In this document: in pieces, positions 58,204 through 64,000 of the stretch
Layout: each line of letters opens with the position of its first letter
Numbering within the stretch: position 1 is the stretch's first letter
Source: a virus
DNA length: 64,000 nt
IMG/VR virus record: IMGVR_UViG_3300023110_000006
Direction: 5' to 3' (one strand)
Notes under the pieces: generated by a model
The model's database searches: none
What the model saw: the letters and a program-made list of their open reading frames with translations, nothing else
Told to the model about the DNA's origin: nothing
Made by a program: the position numbers and the translations under genes

Positions 58204-58268
58204 TATGCCCTCCAGCGTTTGCGTTTGTTTATACTACTACTATATGATCAGTTGCTGTGTAAGTCAAC

Positions 58269-58583
58269 CTAAAATGGTTGACCACACTCTATCTTTTCTG
58301 CGGCTTTAAAGCCCACTGCCGCACACTTGTAGAGTGCACCATCCGCTTCAAAGTAATCACCCATTGCACTTGATCTGTGTCCGTACTTCTCTACAGGAAC
58401 TACAACCTCTACGTGTGGGTTCTTGTCTTGTACTCCTTCGGGGTGGCTCCAGCTGTCCATAATGTTCTGTGTCCAACGGTATGCATACTCGCAGGCTTCA
58501 GTGTGTACTGCGTGTGGCGCATCAACTGTTGCGATGTGTACCGGTTTGTCTTCGAATGCTGTGTGGAAAACTTTAACTTTCAT
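58269..58583 (-). CDS. Early hypothetical protein
   Basis: AYRWTQN...SW, RSS.MGD; own promoter and GAGGGC RBS. Confidence 0.7.
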   Translation of the reverse strand: MKVKVFHTAFEDKPVHIATVDAPHAVHTEACEYAYRWTQNIMDSWSHPEGVQDKNPHVEVVVPVEKYGHRSSAMGDYFEADGALYKCAAVGFKAAEKIECGQPF

Positions 58584-58668
58584 AGTGCCCTCTTTCTGTT
58601 TATACTCTTACTATAAGGTCAAAGGTCTTGTAGGTCAACCCCTAATTTACCAAAAGTTTACGTAAGAT

Positions 58669-58793
58669 GAACCCGGGGAGAGCGTAGTGAGGGCGAGTGC
58701 TCAATCCCCGGGTTCTATACCGTAGAGCGTGAGGGCTAGTAGCTCTTCGGTATGTACAGTGATCAGGTTGAGGGCTACCTTCTCATCACTGTA
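58669..58793 (-). ncRNA. Candidate triple-hairpin RNA with GCCCUCA in every loop (3' UTR of the AAA gene)
   Basis: Three consecutive stems (58669-58715, 58716-58754, 58755-58793), each with TGAGGGC (+) / GCCCTCA (-) in the loop; strand uncertain. Confidence 0.65.
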
Positions 58794-59782
58794 TTCTCTG
58801 CCATTGCTTCCCAGTTGCTGGGAAATGCTTTGGCTAAGTCAGCTACCTTGAGCACTGTACGTAAGCTCAGTTCTCTCAGTCGCTTCTTATTAATATCGAT
58901 GAAGTCTATAATGTCCTCATGTACTTCATCTGAGAATGCATATTCACTAAGCATACCGTCACCCACGATCTGCTTGATACGTAGCATCTTCTCTCGCTCT
59001 GTGTCGATAGTAAGATCTACATAGTGACAACGTGATTCAAGTGCTTCTAAATGGTCTCTCATCTTCTTAGATTTAACGTTGTCGAACTTGATGTTGGTAA
59101 TAAAGATCGCTGAACCTTTGAACTCGAAGCTGTCCGGCACGCCTTCATTACGCAACTTGAATGAATCTGTGTTCCAATGTATACGTCTAGTCTTCTTTGA
59201 ATCCAGTGCGGCTTTTAGGATGTTAAGGCTAAGCTCGTCCTGTAGTACTGAGTCACAGTCGTCAAACACAATTACATTGTCTTTGTCTGCGTACTTGAAC
59301 AGTTTACAGTAGAGGCCGATAGCACTCATCGCACCCTTGACCACTTCATACTTTTTAAAGCTACTGTCGCCTGCAATGTCTGCGAGTAGTTCGTGCTTGC
59401 CCAGCACTTTCTCTACGCCGAAACTTTTACCAACACCTGGAGGTCCTGATACGATCATTGCACGTACATCGCCTTTCTTACATGCTCGTGTCATGTCTTC
59501 TAGCATAGCGAAACGTTCACGCAAACGATCAACAGTCTCTTCATCTGTTTCTTCTCGCTGTGTGATCTTTGAGTTGCCTGCGCTTTCGTAACAGCTTGCA
59601 TCTGTTACTCTGATCTTGATGTTACGATCTGGAAAGCCTGCAATAGCCTTACCATCGACAGTTACGTAACCGCCTGCCGCTCCGATCTTGAAGTCTTCTA
59701 CTAGTGGAAATACCATACCGGCTAGATCAACGTCTTTGCCTCTAATTTTGTAAGTACCCTCTTTGATTCTAATGTTTGTCAT
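58775..59782 (-). CDS. AAA+-type P-loop ATPase, early
   Basis: GPPGVGKS Walker A, IVFDDCD Walker B, IFITN, ALESR. Confidence 0.85.
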   Translation of the reverse strand: MTNIRIKEGTYKIRGKDVDLAGMVFPLVEDFKIGAAGGYVTVDGKAIAGFPDRNIKIRVTDASCYESAGNSKITQREETDEETVDRLRERFAMLEDMTRACKKGDVRAMIVSGPPGVGKSFGVEKVLGKHELLADIAGDSSFKKYEVVKGAMSAIGLYCKLFKYADKDNVIVFDDCDSVLQDELSLNILKAALDSKKTRRIHWNTDSFKLRNEGVPDSFEFKGSAIFITNIKFDNVKSKKMRDHLEALESRCHYVDLTIDTEREKMLRIKQIVGDGMLSEYAFSDEVHEDIIDFIDINKKRLRELSLRTVLKVADLAKAFPSNWEAMAENTVMRR

Positions 59783-59822
59783 ATTGCCCTCGCGTTTTGT
59801 TTATATATTATACTGTAGCATC

Positions 59823-59951
59823 TTAGTTAACTAATGTCAACATCGAACCTATCCAAATTAGGCATACGCCCGCAAATGCTATTGCCATTTGAATAAGACC
59901 TGTGTAAAGACCTACTCCTACTACTGTGATTGCCCCAATTGCTTTTAACAT
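59823..59951 (-). CDS. 42-aa membrane protein (below the ORF-track cutoff)
   Basis: MLKAIGAITVVGVGLYTGLIQMAIAFAGVCLIWIGSMLTLVN; own promoter (GGTTGAC..TATAGT) and GAGGC RBS. Confidence 0.6.
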   Translation of the reverse strand: MLKAIGAITVVGVGLYTGLIQMAIAFAGVCLIWIGSMLTLVN

Positions 59952-60032
59952 ACTCGCCTCTCTGTGTGTTATTATGTTTTTACTATAACACCAAACGGTG
60001 CAATGGTCAACCCCTTTTGGTTACTTATTTGT

Positions 60033-60116
60033 TGGTGCCCGCACCCAGACTCGAACTGGGACGCACATAGCGAGGGATTTTAAGTCCCTTGTGTCTACCT
60101 ATTCCACCATACGGGC
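60033..60116 (-). tRNA. tRNA-Leu (UAA)
   Basis: GCCCGTA acceptor stem, AGGGA-CTTAAAA-TCCCT anticodon arm, long variable arm, GTTCGAG T loop, encoded CCA. Confidence 0.92.
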
Positions 60117-60118
60117 TT

Positions 60119-60195
<77 letters not shown>

Positions 60196-60296
60196 ATCTC
60201 TAAAACTGTTCCTATCTGATTGTAATAAAAGAATGGTTGGGACCCCACCTACTTCCCATACCTGGGGGAGCCTACGCTCCCCGCCCGAGGTGTGTC

Positions 60297-60602
60297 TTAT
60301 GCTTCGACTGTCTCCTCTTGCATCTTAGCTTCTAACTCTGATTTGATTGCAGGAGCATTTCTTACGGCGTATTCATAAATGGCCGCTTGTTGCTCTTCTG
60401 ATTGAAACTTGGGGTGTGCCATTAAGATCTGGCATACTTCTGACTTGGTGAACTCACCACCCATCTCAATCAACTCCACATTCTCGTGGCCGTTCTTGAA
60501 AAGGATTTTCAGTCTGCTCACGAAGTCGTTTGCAAATCTGATTTTTGTGATACCATTTAGAGTGCTTGTACCTGCTACACTGTATGTCTTAGTTGTTGTC
60601 AT
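60297..60602 (-). CDS. Early hypothetical protein
   Basis: VAGTS..NG..KIRFAND..R.K.L.KNGH..V.L motif; own promoter and GAGGGC RBS. Confidence 0.7.
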   Translation of the reverse strand: MTTTKTYSVAGTSTLNGITKIRFANDFVSRLKILFKNGHENVELIEMGGEFTKSEVCQILMAHPKFQSEEQQAAIYEYAVRNAPAIKSELEAKMQEETVEA

Positions 60603-60676
60603 GTTCGCCCTCCAGCGTGTTTGTTTAACTTATATACTAACTATAAGGTCTAACGATCCTAAAGTCAACCTCTTTT

Positions 60677-60865
60677 TTAATTATTTTTTAGAGCAATCAA
60701 TGCACCTGTTAGGAACATAGTCAAGCCCATGCCAGCATAAAACAGCATGTCACCAATAGAGTTGCCTGGACCACACTTGCCGTCACAGTCTCCACCAGCA
60801 CCTGCCATAAAGATAATGCCTGCCATAATTAAGAAGTAACCTATATATGTTGTTATCGTTTTCAT
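60677..60865 (-). CDS. Early small membrane protein
   Basis: Two TM helices flanking GDCDGKC; own promoter and GAGGGC RBS. Confidence 0.65.
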   Translation of the reverse strand: MKTITTYIGYFLIMAGIIFMAGAGGDCDGKCGPGNSIGDMLFYAGMGLTMFLTGALIALKNN

Positions 60866-60942
60866 TCTGCCCTCGTTTGTTAATTTATAATACTACTATA
60901 AGATCAAAAGGGGCTGTTGTCAACCCCTTTTTTCCTCTTATT

Positions 60943-61443
60943 TTATGCGACTGATTCGGGCTCCCAACCCATTTCCTTGAGCTGGTCTGGTGTGATCTTT
61001 GTGGACACTAGGTCAAATATAGGAAAGCCTGATGCATCCTTTTCTTCGTATGCATTGACCAACCACTGATCGCCTCCCCATAGGTAGTAGTATTCTACAC
61101 CCATATCGAAGTTGCTGACCCAGTCCGGGATGTTGTCGAACGTGCAAGGAGCAACTCGTGCCCACTCTTCGCCACGGTCTCGGTGGTATGCTGTAGTCCA
61201 GTCTTCGTACATTGCATCCATCTCTGGTTCGTCATAGTTACGATCGAACGGATGCTTCTCTCCGATCTCTGGTCGTAGGCTTGATATATCACCTAGGTCG
61301 ATCAGCTGTTTGCTCTTAGCTGGATCAGTGTAGTACCTACGGAGCATCTCTCCGTTGTGTGCTGGATAACCATCCCAATGGCAGTAGATTGCTCTGATCT
61401 TGCCTTCGGGAGTCTTCATTGCGATTGTGCTTCTTGTAGCCAT
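60943..61443 (-). CDS. Early hypothetical protein
   Basis: MATRS.I, IYCHWDGYP, GDISSL, AYHRDRGE, EYYYL. Confidence 0.75.
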   Translation of the reverse strand: MATRSTIAMKTPEGKIRAIYCHWDGYPAHNGEMLRRYYTDPAKSKQLIDLGDISSLRPEIGEKHPFDRNYDEPEMDAMYEDWTTAYHRDRGEEWARVAPCTFDNIPDWVSNFDMGVEYYYLWGGDQWLVNAYEEKDASGFPIFDLVSTKITPDQLKEMGWEPESVA

Positions 61444-61506
61444 GTTGCCCTCTCTTTGTTAATTTATGCTCTTACTGTAGCATAGGATTGACTGTGTGTC
61501 AACCCC

Positions 61507-61701
61507 TTAGTTCATGTCAGCTTGCCAATATGTGCCGTCAAACGTAGCAGTCAACGCACCTAATGGAAAGTCTGTGTGCTCAAAAATAATGTAAGGAGCG
61601 CCTGTAAATTCACAAATCTTTTGCGTGTGGATGTTTACTTCGCTCAACGGAATCAAACGCTCGTCTGTGTTACGGTATGCGCTGTTAAAAACTCTAATCA
61701 T
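61507..61701 (-). CDS. Early hypothetical protein
   Basis: GAGGGC RBS before ATG 61701; own promoter. Confidence 0.65.
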   Translation of the reverse strand: MIRVFNSAYRNTDERLIPLSEVNIHTQKICEFTGAPYIIFEHTDFPLGALTATFDGTYWQADMN

Positions 61702-61790
61702 CTCTAAGCCCTCTTTGCTTTGTTTATACAATTAATATAGTGCATTTAGTTGCTGTTGTCAACCCCTAAATGCACTTTTTTTTATTTTTT

Positions 61791-61994
61791 TTAATTTTCG
61801 TCTACTAATTCCCAAACTTGCATACGTGCATTGTCAAACAGTCTAAAAAACTGTAAGTCTGTATCCAAATAGTCGTTGTTAATTTCTCGCAAGCGTTTTT
61901 CTAAATCCTGTTGTGTAGCAAACACGCCAAAATTTTCCCAAGCAGTTTCACTGTCGCCTGTGCCCTGTAATTGTAAAACGAAAACATTTTGCAT
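61791..61994 (-). CDS. Early hypothetical protein (proline-free)
   Basis: Own promoter and GAGGGC RBS; lies in the GA/GG-free template block. Confidence 0.65.
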   Translation of the reverse strand: MQNVFVLQLQGTGDSETAWENFGVFATQQDLEKRLREINNDYLDTDLQFFRLFDNARMQVWELVDEN

Positions 61995-62068
61995 AAGTGC
62001 CCTCTCTATGCTGTGTAATATAAAAACACTGTAGCACCTATGCGCTACAGTGTCAAGTGTTTTTTTAA

Positions 62069-62341
62069 TTAATTTTCAAATTTTACTCCTAACAAACGCA
62101 AATAGCGTCCGTTGTCTGTAAAGTGTACTTTGTCACAGCCAGTTGCAAAACGTAACCAATTGCATTCTGCTTGTGTAAACTTGTCTCCTATTATTCCAAA
62201 GCACAAGTTGCGTCTGTCCTTTACATCCTCTAAATCTTTTTGCACACCGTTTGTCCAAGTGCGCCATACACCTGTGTCCTTTTGTGCAATCATATCTGCA
62301 ACCAATTTACGTGCTTGTTTTGTGTTTAATTCTGTCTGCAT
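62069..62341 (-). CDS. Early hypothetical protein (Pro- and Ser-free)
   Basis: GAGGGC RBS before ATG 62341; lies in the GA/GG-free template block. Confidence 0.65.
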   Translation of the reverse strand: MQTELNTKQARKLVADMIAQKDTGVWRTWTNGVQKDLEDVKDRRNLCFGIIGDKFTQAECNWLRFATGCDKVHFTDNGRYLRLLGVKFEN

Positions 62342-62417
62342 ATATAAGCCCTCCATATGCGTGTTGTATAAAAACACTGTAGCACAGTTGCGCTACAGTG
62401 TCAAGCATTTTTTTAAA

Positions 62418-62765
62418 TTACACCTCCATGCTTGCATAGCCATCGTCTTGCATGCCTTGCTCAGTAAAAGTTACGTCCATACCTAATGCTGTACTAATAG
62501 CACGTTCAAATCCACTGTCCGTGTAAATGTCCCATGTAGCATCATGCACAACGTTCACCATAACACTGTCGCTCATATCGTCTTCATACACAGTATGTCT
62601 TACCTGTATGCTGTCCACACGCACAGTATCCTTTCCTGTGTAATCCCATATGCTGTCCATAGCAAGTTTTACAGTTCCTTGCACATCATACATTGTATTA
62701 GTTACAGTTTCCTGCAGTTCCGCGTCACGCTCATTTTCAGTGTATAGTTTTTTAAGTGTAAGCAT
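62418..62765 (-). CDS. Early acidic hypothetical protein (proline-free)
   Basis: IYTDSGFE...FTEQGMQ motif; GAGGGC RBS; lies in the GA/GG-free template block. Confidence 0.7.
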   Translation of the reverse strand: MLTLKKLYTENERDAELQETVTNTMYDVQGTVKLAMDSIWDYTGKDTVRVDSIQVRHTVYEDDMSDSVMVNVVHDATWDIYTDSGFERAISTALGMDVTFTEQGMQDDGYASMEV

Positions 62766-62832
62766 ATTGCCCTCGCTTTGCTTGTTTGTTAATGTTAACT
62801 ATTTGTAGCACATACAAAAGCATAATGCAAGA

Positions 62833-62910
62833 GAAAAGTTTTGTTTAAAAACAATGACTTAGCAAAAAAATTTATTTTATAAGTCATTGAAAACAAAGGA
62901 AACTTTTTTC
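62833..62910. repeat. Imperfect inverted repeat with IHF-like cores between divergent promoters
   Basis: AAAAGTTT..CAATGACTTA / TAAGTCATTG..AAACTTTT. Confidence 0.55.
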
Positions 62911-62920
62911 ACAAATGGGG

Positions 62921-63028
62921 TTGACAAATGACCCTTAGCTTGCTATATTATAATTGAGGATGGGGGCAGTAGGTCCGAGGGAACCGAAGAGCCGCAAACG
63001 GGAGGGCACGGAGCTCTGACCATTTTTT
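62921..63028 (+). ncRNA. Candidate ~70-nt small RNA with its own sigma70 promoter
   Basis: TTGACA-17 nt-TATATT, then a G-rich structured segment containing GAGGGC and ending in TTTTTT; no credible ORF. Confidence 0.45.
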
Positions 63029-63040
63029 CAAACCAGAACC

Positions 63041-63075
63041 AAAAAGAAAGACGACCCCTAGGGCCGCCTCTCTCT
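63041..63075 (-). terminator. Rho-independent terminator
   Basis: Minus strand AGAGAGGCGGCCC-TAG-GGGTCGTCTTTCT-TTTT; G-U pairs fit the minus strand. Confidence 0.7.
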
Positions 63076-63089
63076 GAGGGCAAGTCTAT

Positions 63090-63293
63090 CTAGTACTCGT
63101 CTGAGTAAACCTCTCCAAAGTCTTCCCACTCCTGCTCCCAGGTGGGTTGCCCGTCGTTGTCGTCGAAACTCTCGTCGAACTCTACACGCACCCCGCCACC
63201 ATAGGCTAGGTTGTATTCTGTCTGCATGGCCTCGGCCTCGTTCCGATTATCGAAACTGTCTACGACCTCGCCCTTCCAAATTAACTTCCACAT
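63090..63293 (-). CDS. Early hypothetical protein
   Basis: EVVDSFD...EA..M..EY.LAYG and DGQPTWEQEW.DF; own promoter, GAGGTG RBS. Confidence 0.65.
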   Translation of the reverse strand: MWKLIWKGEVVDSFDNRNEAEAMQTEYNLAYGGGVRVEFDESFDDNDGQPTWEQEWEDFGEVYSDEY

Positions 63294-63345
63294 TTTTGCA
63301 CCTCTTTCTAACTATACCTTACTATAACACGGCCCCACAGCAATG

Positions 63346-63669
63346 TCAACCCCTTTTGGTATAAGTCCTCGGGTCGACTGAAATAGCGTTGGAGATCTGG
63401 TACTCCCGATAGTCTTTGCTATCGTCAGCCAGCTCGGCCATCCACTCGTCATAGGTGGAATATGAGCTTGGGAACTCCTTGAACGAAATGTTGTTCTCCA
63501 TCCCAATAGCCGCTACAAATGCCACAGCATCCTGTAGCCGCTCTACCCCACTTACAATGTAGGTATCGCCTCCCTTGAATTTCCAATAAGCGTTCCCGCT
63601 CTTGAACCGGCCGTCCTCACAGTGAGCGCCATAGTTTTCCATGTGTTGTGTGTGAACTACGAATTGCAT
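63346..63669 (-). CDS. Early hypothetical protein
   Basis: TQ..ENYGAH...YWKFKGG.TY; GAGGGC RBS before ATG 63669. Confidence 0.7.
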   Translation of the reverse strand: MQFVVHTQHMENYGAHCEDGRFKSGNAYWKFKGGDTYIVSGVERLQDAVAFVAAIGMENNISFKEFPSSYSTYDEWMAELADDSKDYREYQISNAISVDPRTYTKRG

Positions 63670-64000
63670 AATTTTTGCCCTCTCTAATGCGTTATTGTCT
63701 CTACAGTATAAGACCAACACAAGGAGAAGTCAACCCCTAATTTACCAAAAAACGGTTTTTTGAACGACACGGAAAGAACACGACGAGTGGGGTGATGATC
63801 CAAACTCAAGTGTACACCAAACTGTATAGTGTGACCAAAACCTGAATTTTCTCAATCTTTTCAAAGGGTTAGCAGGCTCTCTTAGTGTAGTAGCATAGTA
63901 GAGCTAACCGCAAGTCCAAAACCCCTAGTAGCCGCACTATACACTATAGCCGCAAGCCCCACCAAAAGGCCCCTCCAAACCCCTCTTAGGCCCAGATCTG

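Follow-up and report, generated by a model that had tools for sequence, protein, structure and literature searches.

The locus described here raises the question of why three consecutive hairpins of a giant phage, the first of which begins in the last codons of an ATPase gene, should all display the same six bases, GCCCUC, and why these bases should be the exact complement of GAGGGC, a sequence that precedes the start codons of early genes in the same genome. The window, i.e. the whole stretch of DNA that was analysed, comprises 64,000 nucleotides of IMG/VR virus record IMGVR_UViG_3300023110_000006. In the following, GAGGGC in front of a start codon is called the tag and its complement in a loop the anti-tag.

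The window comes from a large myovirus, the plus strand of which encodes a tail sheath of 1079 aa and carries helicase and polymerase genes; many of the plus-strand genes are equipped with T4-style late promoter boxes (TATAAATA) and with ordinary ribosome sites of the AGGAG type. On the minus strand a block of small genes extends from approx. 57.8 kb to the window end and contains 13 near-consensus sigma-70-type promoters (TTGACA-17-TAnnnT). This block is a T4-like early region and the phage is an uncultured marine giant phage. Its nearest cultured relatives, the PA5oct-like Pseudomonas phages and the Sinorhizobium phage Phosso, were seen at the protein level only, and when the nucleotide sequence of the ATPase region was compared with 50,697 phage records, no match was obtained. 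The gene whose 3'UTR is formed by the hairpins (58775-59782, minus strand) codes for an AAA+ ATPase of 335 aa, which matched phrog_1250 at 4e-83, gave weak Pfam AAA matches, contained an FtsH-like AAA module (E 2e-3, PDB) and was 47% identical to a protein of the Pseudomonas giant phage PA5oct. In PHROGs, Pfam and NCBIfam nothing beyond the generic AAA+ module was found for the ATPase, and no function was found for the small early ORFs.

Some further features of this region were recorded. Genes of a tRNA-Leu(UAA) and a tRNA-Arg(UCU) are located within the early block, just 5' of the ATPase promoter (60033-60195, minus strand). At 62022-62056 and 62370-62404 (minus strand) the same bases make up both a promoter (TTGACA-17-TACAGT) and a hairpin with a U-run, and these units resemble the PeSL composites of T4-type phages. 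Identification of the host from MAGs was rejected, since the ATPase gene occurred in MAGs of four different phyla, which indicates misbinning. The close relatives concerned, L237 (PBPT01000016.1, a contig of 335 kb) and L238-L240, had been binned in Neomarinimicrobiota, Ignavibacteriales, Flavobacteriaceae and Actinomycetota MAGs; these labels are almost certainly binning errors, and L237 looks like a near-complete phage genome.

The three strong hairpins follow each other on the minus (mRNA) strand from 58793 to 58669. The 141-nt stretch containing them folded at -57.1 kcal/mol, compared with -34.0 +/- 3.5 kcal/mol for 200 dinucleotide shuffles (z -6.7), none of which was as good. GCCCUC was present in all three loops (58775-58770, 58736-58731 and 58694-58689); in the partition function the motifs were essentially unpaired, and the cost of opening them was 0.0-1.0 kcal/mol. 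Thus the three tandem hairpins with one loop core, overlapping the ATPase stop codon, which had been proposed in a sequence-only reading of this DNA, were borne out by the fold. Hairpin 1 (58755-58793, minus strand) has its arms at 58755-58766 and 58782-58793, the 5' arm being made of the last ATPase codons, and its motif overlaps the ATPase stop UAG (58777-58775) in such a way that the G of the stop is also the first G of GCCCUC. Hairpin 2 (58717-58753, minus strand) carries the motif in a 13-nt loop, in the conserved context GCCCUCACGCUCU, and has an apical stem AGAGC/GCUCU. Hairpin 3 (58669-58715, minus strand) possesses an 11-bp G+C-rich outer stem (arms 58669-58679 and 58705-58715) and a weak U tract, UUCAUCUU, stands behind it; the terminator scan of the window did not pick up this hairpin, which is likely the 3' end or the terminator of the ATPase transcript. 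No relevant Rfam family was found in 58400-59000, even at E values up to 10, and in the whole window only a tRNA reached the gathering score.

Two solitary copies of GCCCUC were also seen on the early-mRNA strand (63002-63081, minus strand). One of them (63081-63076) was contained in the GCCCTCA that the same reading had pointed out just 3' of the stop of the 63090 gene, and it lies 5' of the terminator hairpin of that gene; the other, an additional copy at 63007-63002, is situated beyond the terminator.

The complementary hexamer, GAGGGC, was found 19 times in the window (7.5 +/- 2.5 expected). All 11 minus-strand copies sit 3-6 nt 5' of an ATG, in front of ORFs of 62-335 aa which are early genes with a sigma-70-type promoter, so the claimed complementarity of the loops to 11 early start sites was confirmed. 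The tagged block covers 58207-63682 on the minus strand, the first bases of the tags being at 58212, 58592, 59791, 60612, 60874, 61452, 61713, 62004, 62353, 62774 and 63682, and the mean opening energy of the tags was 1.6 kcal/mol. At the 41 middle/late start sites of the window the tag was absent, and AGGAG-type sites are used there. The ATPase gene is itself one of the tagged genes: its early promoter (TTGACA-17-TACAGT, 59840-59812) and the GAGGGC of its leader (59791-59786, 3 nt 5' of the ATG) occupy 59786-59840 on the minus strand. Since the ATPase leader is tagged and the array is located in the 3'UTR of the same gene, one tag and three anti-tags are present on the same mRNA. Directly 3' of the array the next early unit begins (58587-58638, minus strand), with a promoter at 58638-58610 and the tagged leader (GAGGGC 58592-58587) of the gene 58269-58583.

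When the ATPase protein was used as the query, 80 IMG/VR loci were obtained. At all loci with an ATPase identity of at least 64%, between 1 and 5 hairpins with GCCCUC loops followed the ATPase stop, mostly in 2 or 3 copies. After removal of the duplicates, 54 distinct arrays of marine IMG/VR relatives made up the set that is referred to as clade A. Their arrays are followed by the promoter and tagged leader of the next gene, and this downstream gene itself varies. The 140 distinct GCCCUC hairpin instances of clade A had the motif consensus H-GCCCUC-R and loops of mostly 6-9 nt; the loop type of hairpin 2 was found again in most of the arrays, and tight hexaloops of the form G[UGCCCU]C also occurred. 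When the motif was kept single-stranded, the mean energy of the hairpins was -16.9 kcal/mol with the true flanks and -7.1 kcal/mol after the 3' flanks had been swapped between the instances. The identity of the 5' flanks, taken over the 12 nt adjoining the motif, was 28% between instances. For hairpin 1, where MAFFT and RNAalifold were applied to 18 homologues, the outer helix was recovered with double compensatory changes at 4 of its 8 pairs; the inner helix was misaligned. In the 54 distinct arrays the stems thus vary and the loops stay fixed, as had been predicted for the relatives, and these comparisons mark the array as a selected structure whose loop is invariant.

The array and the tag were also compared on longer contigs and at the level of single bases. 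Three contigs of 236-275 kb contained exactly one tight motif cluster each, behind the ATPase gene, and 17-32 matches each to GAGGGC-N(2-8)-ATG, most of them in the 10-12 kb early block that holds the array. Single-base variants were common both in the loop (GCCCUU) and in the tag (GAGGGU), pairing being kept via G-U wobble, and in one clade A member (L054) the tag is mostly GAGGGAA and the terminal loop reads UUCCCUC. The initial description of GAGGGC as a private SD code is correct as far as the restriction to early genes is concerned; the code is not private to this phage, as more than 50 diverged relatives share it.

Additional copies and displacements were observed at some clade A loci. 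At L051:2186-3100, approx. 450-870 nt of foreign sequence splits the ATPase stop from a typical GCCCUC array, which was displaced and kept. Solitary GCCCUC hairpins, with the motif in an internal or apical loop, form one family at L021:2000-2060, L030:1750-1815, L031:2330-2395, L035:1925-1990 and L041:935-1000, and a second family at L039:310-375, L043:1330-1395, L048:1330-1395 and L062:1295-1390. Both families stand behind other early genes, at 1.4-3.4 kb 5' of the ATPase stop, and one of them has conserved GCAAG ... GUAAGAC flanks. These hairpins may provide additional anti-tag sites or may be RNA elements in their own right.

A second, sister clade (clade B) was reached via L078 and yielded 59 distinct arrays, the post-ATPase loops of which read AUUCGCUCC (104 instances). 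The clade B loop is closed by three co-varying pairs (CCG/CGG, GUG/CAC and CUG/CAG); in the gapless pair count around the loop only the three apical pairs (CG/UA/GC) were resolved, the outer helices being out of register. The early leaders of clade B read GGAGCGAA, which is the complement of UUCGCUCC over 8 bp. Leader 6-mers were counted in promoter-proximal leaders, 374 distinct ones per clade. GAGGGC occurred in 203 of the 374 clade A leaders and was outside the 14 commonest 6-mers of clade B, where AGGAGC (248/374), GGAGCG (193/374) and AGCGAA (126/374) were frequent; each of these three was in turn outside the 14 commonest 6-mers of clade A. In both clades the tag is composed of an SD core and a private 3' extension, GC[A] in clade A and CGAA in clade B, and the loop matches the core as well as the extension. 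The duplexes of the loops with the leaders of their own clade had energies of -12.0 (A/A) and -11.4 kcal/mol (B/B), and those formed across the clades were weaker (A loops with B leaders -8.1, B loops with A leaders -8.7 kcal/mol).

Neither array nor tag was found in the relatives designated clade C (L063, L065-L077, L079, L080, L217-L236), nor in the outgroups L070/L195/L201 and PA5oct. A quick maximum-likelihood tree was computed from the last 250 residues of the ATPase; in it a well-supported branch separated clades A and B; clade C was on the A side on a long branch, in a placement that is not secure. This distribution suggests that array and tag were lost jointly in clade C. With the L052 ATPase as query, L052 turned out to be a singleton and no third loop/tag code was obtained. 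Altogether more than 110 distinct arrays were found in uncultured giant phages of marine and other aquatic origin. The complementarity of loop and tag thus holds beyond the phage in which it was first noticed: two clades have each their own complementary code, and loop and tag are jointly absent elsewhere. The co-variation rests on few independent events, namely a single switch between A and B, a single probable joint loss, a single gain and L054. The comparative evidence that the loops and the early tag constitute a functional, co-evolving pair is good, and the loops very probably base-pair with the tags to control early protein synthesis.

The sequences beyond the clade B arrays have a character of their own. 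Among L081-L146, most clade B arrays are followed by G-rich repeats (GGTCGAGG, GGTGG or GGTCGGGG) which run into TATAAA-like boxes approx. 10-90 nt past the terminator hairpin, and a sigma-70-type promoter was detected 3' of the array in only 12 of the 59 cases. The repeats may represent a different promoter class or a protein-binding array.

The strand on which the array is expressed was deduced from the surrounding signals. On the sense strand a U-run follows the last hairpin in 28 of 54 clade A and 54 of 59 clade B arrays. A sigma-70-type promoter was present 5' of the ATPase gene at all 56 clade A loci; promoter-like sites in the last 400 nt of the ATPase gene were seen at 3/56 (A) and 0/62 (B) loci, and no promoter intervened between the ATPase promoter and the array at 53 of the 56 clade A and all 62 clade B loci. 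Because of these sense U-runs and the placement of the promoters, the array is to be regarded as the 3'UTR of the ATPase message, and the earlier assignment of the element to the mRNA strand is supported across the relatives.

The strength of the possible pairings was calculated for the window. The loops and the 11 early tags gave duplexes of -13.4 to -17.8 kcal/mol (mean -14.6), compared with a mean of -7.8 kcal/mol for the 16S anti-SD tail on the same 11 tagged leaders and a mean of -5.4 kcal/mol for the loops on the 41 middle/late sites. Taking into account also the small opening costs on both sides, the loops would therefore outcompete the ribosome on the tagged leaders and would ignore the other sites. 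When the array was combined in RNAcofold with a leader, or else with the small plus-strand RNA described below, the gain was within the range of the shuffled controls, loop-loop and loop-strand kissing being outside the model of this program.

We consider it probable, with some reserve, that the array is a multivalent anti-ribosome-site RNA which represses the tagged early genes of the phage, i.e. an RNA counterpart of T4 RegA. According to this model each open loop at the 3' end of the ATPase mRNA would hold a 6-7 nt anti-tag (GCCCUC), and the tag would combine a weak SD core (GAGG) with a private extension of 2-3 nt that is unable to pair with 16S rRNA. Pairing of a loop with the single-stranded tag would cover the landing site of the 30S subunit; the tagged leaders would be bound far better by the loops than by the anti-SD, and the middle/late sites would be spared. 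Since it is very stable and has a probable terminator hairpin at its end, the array would outlast the early messages, and the translation, probably the stability too, of the tagged early regulon would fall progressively as the array accumulated. The repression would operate in trans on the regulon and in cis on the ATPase message itself. Pairing in the cell, repression as opposed to activation or protection, and accumulation as a processed RNA are the steps that we infer from the sequences. The array shares early promoter type and timing with its supposed targets, so the shut-off would need a differential stability, which is assumed here. The ratio of loops to tags is low (3-5 loops for a dozen or more tagged genes), and the tight hexaloops would need the opening of their closing pair for 6-7 bp to be formed. 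No helper protein or processing site was identified for the array.

The pairing might be real and yet have a role other than repression in trans, such as cis autoregulation of the ATPase message, control of read-through into the next tagged gene, or protection or activation of the early leaders, for instance against an SD-cutting nuclease of the RegB type. The physical arrangement speaks for such a role: the array is always tied to the ATPase gene, the ATPase leader itself bears the tag (34 of 51 distinct leaders in clade A, 48 of 49 in clade B), the next tagged leader begins approx. 80 nt downstream of an array whose terminator U tract is weak in the window, and solitary anti-tag hairpins stand after some other early genes. 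The GGAG of early SDs, moreover, is a cleavage site of RegB, from which it is shielded by secondary structure (PMC3014915). However, a single tag in cis would hardly call for several loops (2-5), a dozen or more of the genes that keep the tag lack an anti-tag themselves, and Pfam homologues of RegB and RegA were not found in three relatives that are 67-77% complete, a search in which the control genomes gave no match either. We regard these alternative roles as rather unlikely.

Alternatively, the hairpins could be a 3'-end module, a terminator with an exonuclease barrier, whose loops bind a protein of the phage or of the host, the complementarity to the tag not being used for RNA-RNA pairing. 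In most relatives the last hairpin is indeed a terminator, and several of the loops are small and tightly closed, as protein-binding operators are. Tag pairing also leaves unexplained the extra conserved sequence of hairpin 2 (ACGCUCU and the AGAGC/GCUCU stem), as well as the conservation of the purine after the motif, which is unpairable with the A that usually precedes the tag. A protein-binding module would not account for the finding that the loops of the two clades each complement their own tag, including 2 and 4 nt beyond the SD core, for which the chance is about (1/4)^6 for the extensions alone, nor for the joint absence of loop and tag. In addition, there is no conserved neighbour gene for an RNA-binding protein: the downstream gene varies and the early ORFs are without an annotated family. 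Such a module is therefore an improbable explanation.

It had also been suggested that the functional transcript could be that of the plus strand, the GAGGGC loops of which would be a decoy for a factor binding the early tag, in the manner of the CsrB sponge. The plus strand of the window array folds well, as had been stated, and slightly better than the minus strand (-61.7 vs -57.1 kcal/mol). In the relatives the G-U strand asymmetry weakly favours the sense strand (82 vs 57, and 56 vs 46), and the average sense hairpin has a slightly higher stability and contains more G-U pairs. At 58579-58606 on the plus strand a weak promoter-like site (9/12) is directed towards the array; it arises from the leader and start codon of the next gene read as their reverse complement, and it is probably incidental. 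An antisense promoter downstream was seen at only 1/56 (A) and 0/62 (B) loci, the antisense equivalent of the terminator, an A-run 5' of the first hairpin, occurred in 0/54 and 2/59 arrays as opposed to the frequent sense U-runs, and the GGA loop context of the CsrA type is absent. A sponge on the plus strand is accordingly disfavoured, and we find it hard to credit.

That the signal is read at the DNA level, either as ssDNA hairpins for priming or an origin or as sites of a dsDNA-binding protein shared with the early leaders, is highly improbable, for although GAGGGC/GCCCTC is one and the same site to a duplex-binding protein, so that the co-variation alone would be compatible with it, and G4-type priming signals have a similar three-hairpin layout, the orientation is strict over hundreds of instances (the tags sense, the array anti-tags on the same strand as the complement), the motif is always in the loop of a co-varying stem, which a duplex site does not need, the tag keeps a fixed 3-6 nt from the ATG, and the last hairpin is, in most relatives, a transcription terminator.

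A separate plus-strand unit was noticed within the early region. It is a candidate small RNA at 62921-63034 (plus strand), with the promoter TTGACA-17-TATATT at 62921-62949 and GAGGGCAC at 63002-63009, and it ends with GGGAGGGCACGGAGCUCUGAC and a U-run. Its 3' part is identical in L161-L164 (e.g. L161:3120-3200), and in L027/L161 the unit runs the other way with respect to the ATPase gene. The fold of this RNA was not significant (z -0.6). Its GAGGGCAC would form 8 bp with the common GUGCCCUC loops, and it is possible that this candidate member of the system is a mimic of the tag and a partner or antagonist of the array.

Comparison with the known systems indicates where the proposed anti-ribosome-site RNA would belong. 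The cuckoo RNAs of Alphaproteobacteria (RSs0680/CcsR, SmelC397 and others) consist of 2-4 adjacent hairpins with an invariant C-rich, anti-SD-like loop and compensating stems, and occlusion of the RBS has been proposed for them (PMC4615179; PMC8034643). In the array, similarly, neighbouring hairpins share one loop motif and differ in their stems (three in the window, 1-5 motif copies in the relatives). However, the cuckoo loop is CCUCCUCCC, while the array loops are GCCCUC in clade A or AUUCGCUCC in clade B; the cuckoo RNAs are encoded on bacterial chromosomes by sRNA genes that possess a promoter of their own, while the array is the 3'UTR of a phage early gene without an Rfam match, and its targets would be the phage's own early genes with a private SD extension. 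In S. aureus RNAIII and in other sRNAs with UCCC loops, several C-rich loops start the binding at the SDs of several mRNAs and repress translation (PMC4615179; PMC9266662). The array likewise shows several C-rich loops, but RNAIII is a quorum-sensing RNA of the host with other motifs, and its targets have ordinary SDs. The CsrB/RsmZ sponges display the GGA motif (A(N)GGA), which CsrA/RsmA binds, in many hairpin loops; the sense loops of the array are C-rich, its antisense GAGGGC loops are without the A(N)GGA context, and the antisense strand lacks a promoter and a terminator.

Among phage elements, the PeSL cassettes of T4-type phages are repeated units of promoter and stem-loop which serve recombination, the sequence being conserved over stem and promoter (PMC2839356, PMC4122927). 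The setting of the array is similar in that small early genes are each accompanied by a sigma-70-type promoter and a stem-loop; its own stems, unlike those of PeSL, are unrelated, the loop is fixed, there is a single locus per genome and no promoter lies inside. In T4 the early products RegA and RegB lower about 30 early messages at the translation initiation regions, and RegB reads the SD variant GGAG, which is enriched in early genes (PMC3014915). The logic is alike, but RegA and RegB are proteins, while for the array the effector is proposed to be an RNA and the recognition to occur by base pairing. A precedent for a phage RNA of this kind is the c4 antisense RNA of P1/P7 (review PMC12197685). 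It is the closest one from phages, and like those of c4 the loops of the array complement an RBS site on the same message, the tag being in the ATPase leader and the anti-tags in the 3'UTR. As Citron and Schuster reportedly found in 1990, the loops of c4 pair around the RBS on a message of the same operon, and loop and target differ together between the phages, which sets heteroimmunity. The c4 RNA is also said to be a single small RNA, encoded by a temperate phage, whose two loops act on one target (icd/ant), and to be located upstream of that target and processed by RNase P. In the array, in contrast, 2-5 equal loops occupy a 3'UTR, the phage is a lytic giant one and its tagged genes number a dozen or more, and no similarity to c4 was found in sequence or in Rfam. 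Thus the array is outside the cuckoo, RNAIII and c4 families. No description of the element was found in the full-text literature searched with the motif together with phage terms and for phage sRNAs acting at ribosome-binding sites, and the array is apparently an undescribed, strongly conserved structured RNA element.

A more far-reaching interpretation, which by analogy with the heteroimmunity of P1/P7 c4 we put forward tentatively, as a possibility that may well prove wrong, is that array and tag are an RNA-only master switch that governs the early regulon as a whole and exists in two or more orthogonal codes, GCCCUC/GAGGGC for the marine clade and UUCGCUCC/GGAGCGAA for its sister. Because many diverged members of a clade use one code, a phage already established in a cell, with its array RNA built up, would also silence the tagged early genes of a relative that superinfects, and this would amount to an RNA-based cross-immunity among lytic giant phages. 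The small RNA at 62921-63034, which carries GAGGGCAC, could then be an antagonist.

Lytic phages shut off their early genes by proteins, e.g. RegA, RegB and Alc of T4. If the repression model is true, a conserved multivalent RNA together with a dedicated SD extension would be a new way of timing the phage programme, in which the virus would mark one temporal class of messages with an address readable by its own RNA alone. The two natural, mutually orthogonal tag/anti-tag pairs would then be usable as translational switches, and the system would show RNA-RNA co-evolution with unusual clarity on the basis of metagenomes alone.
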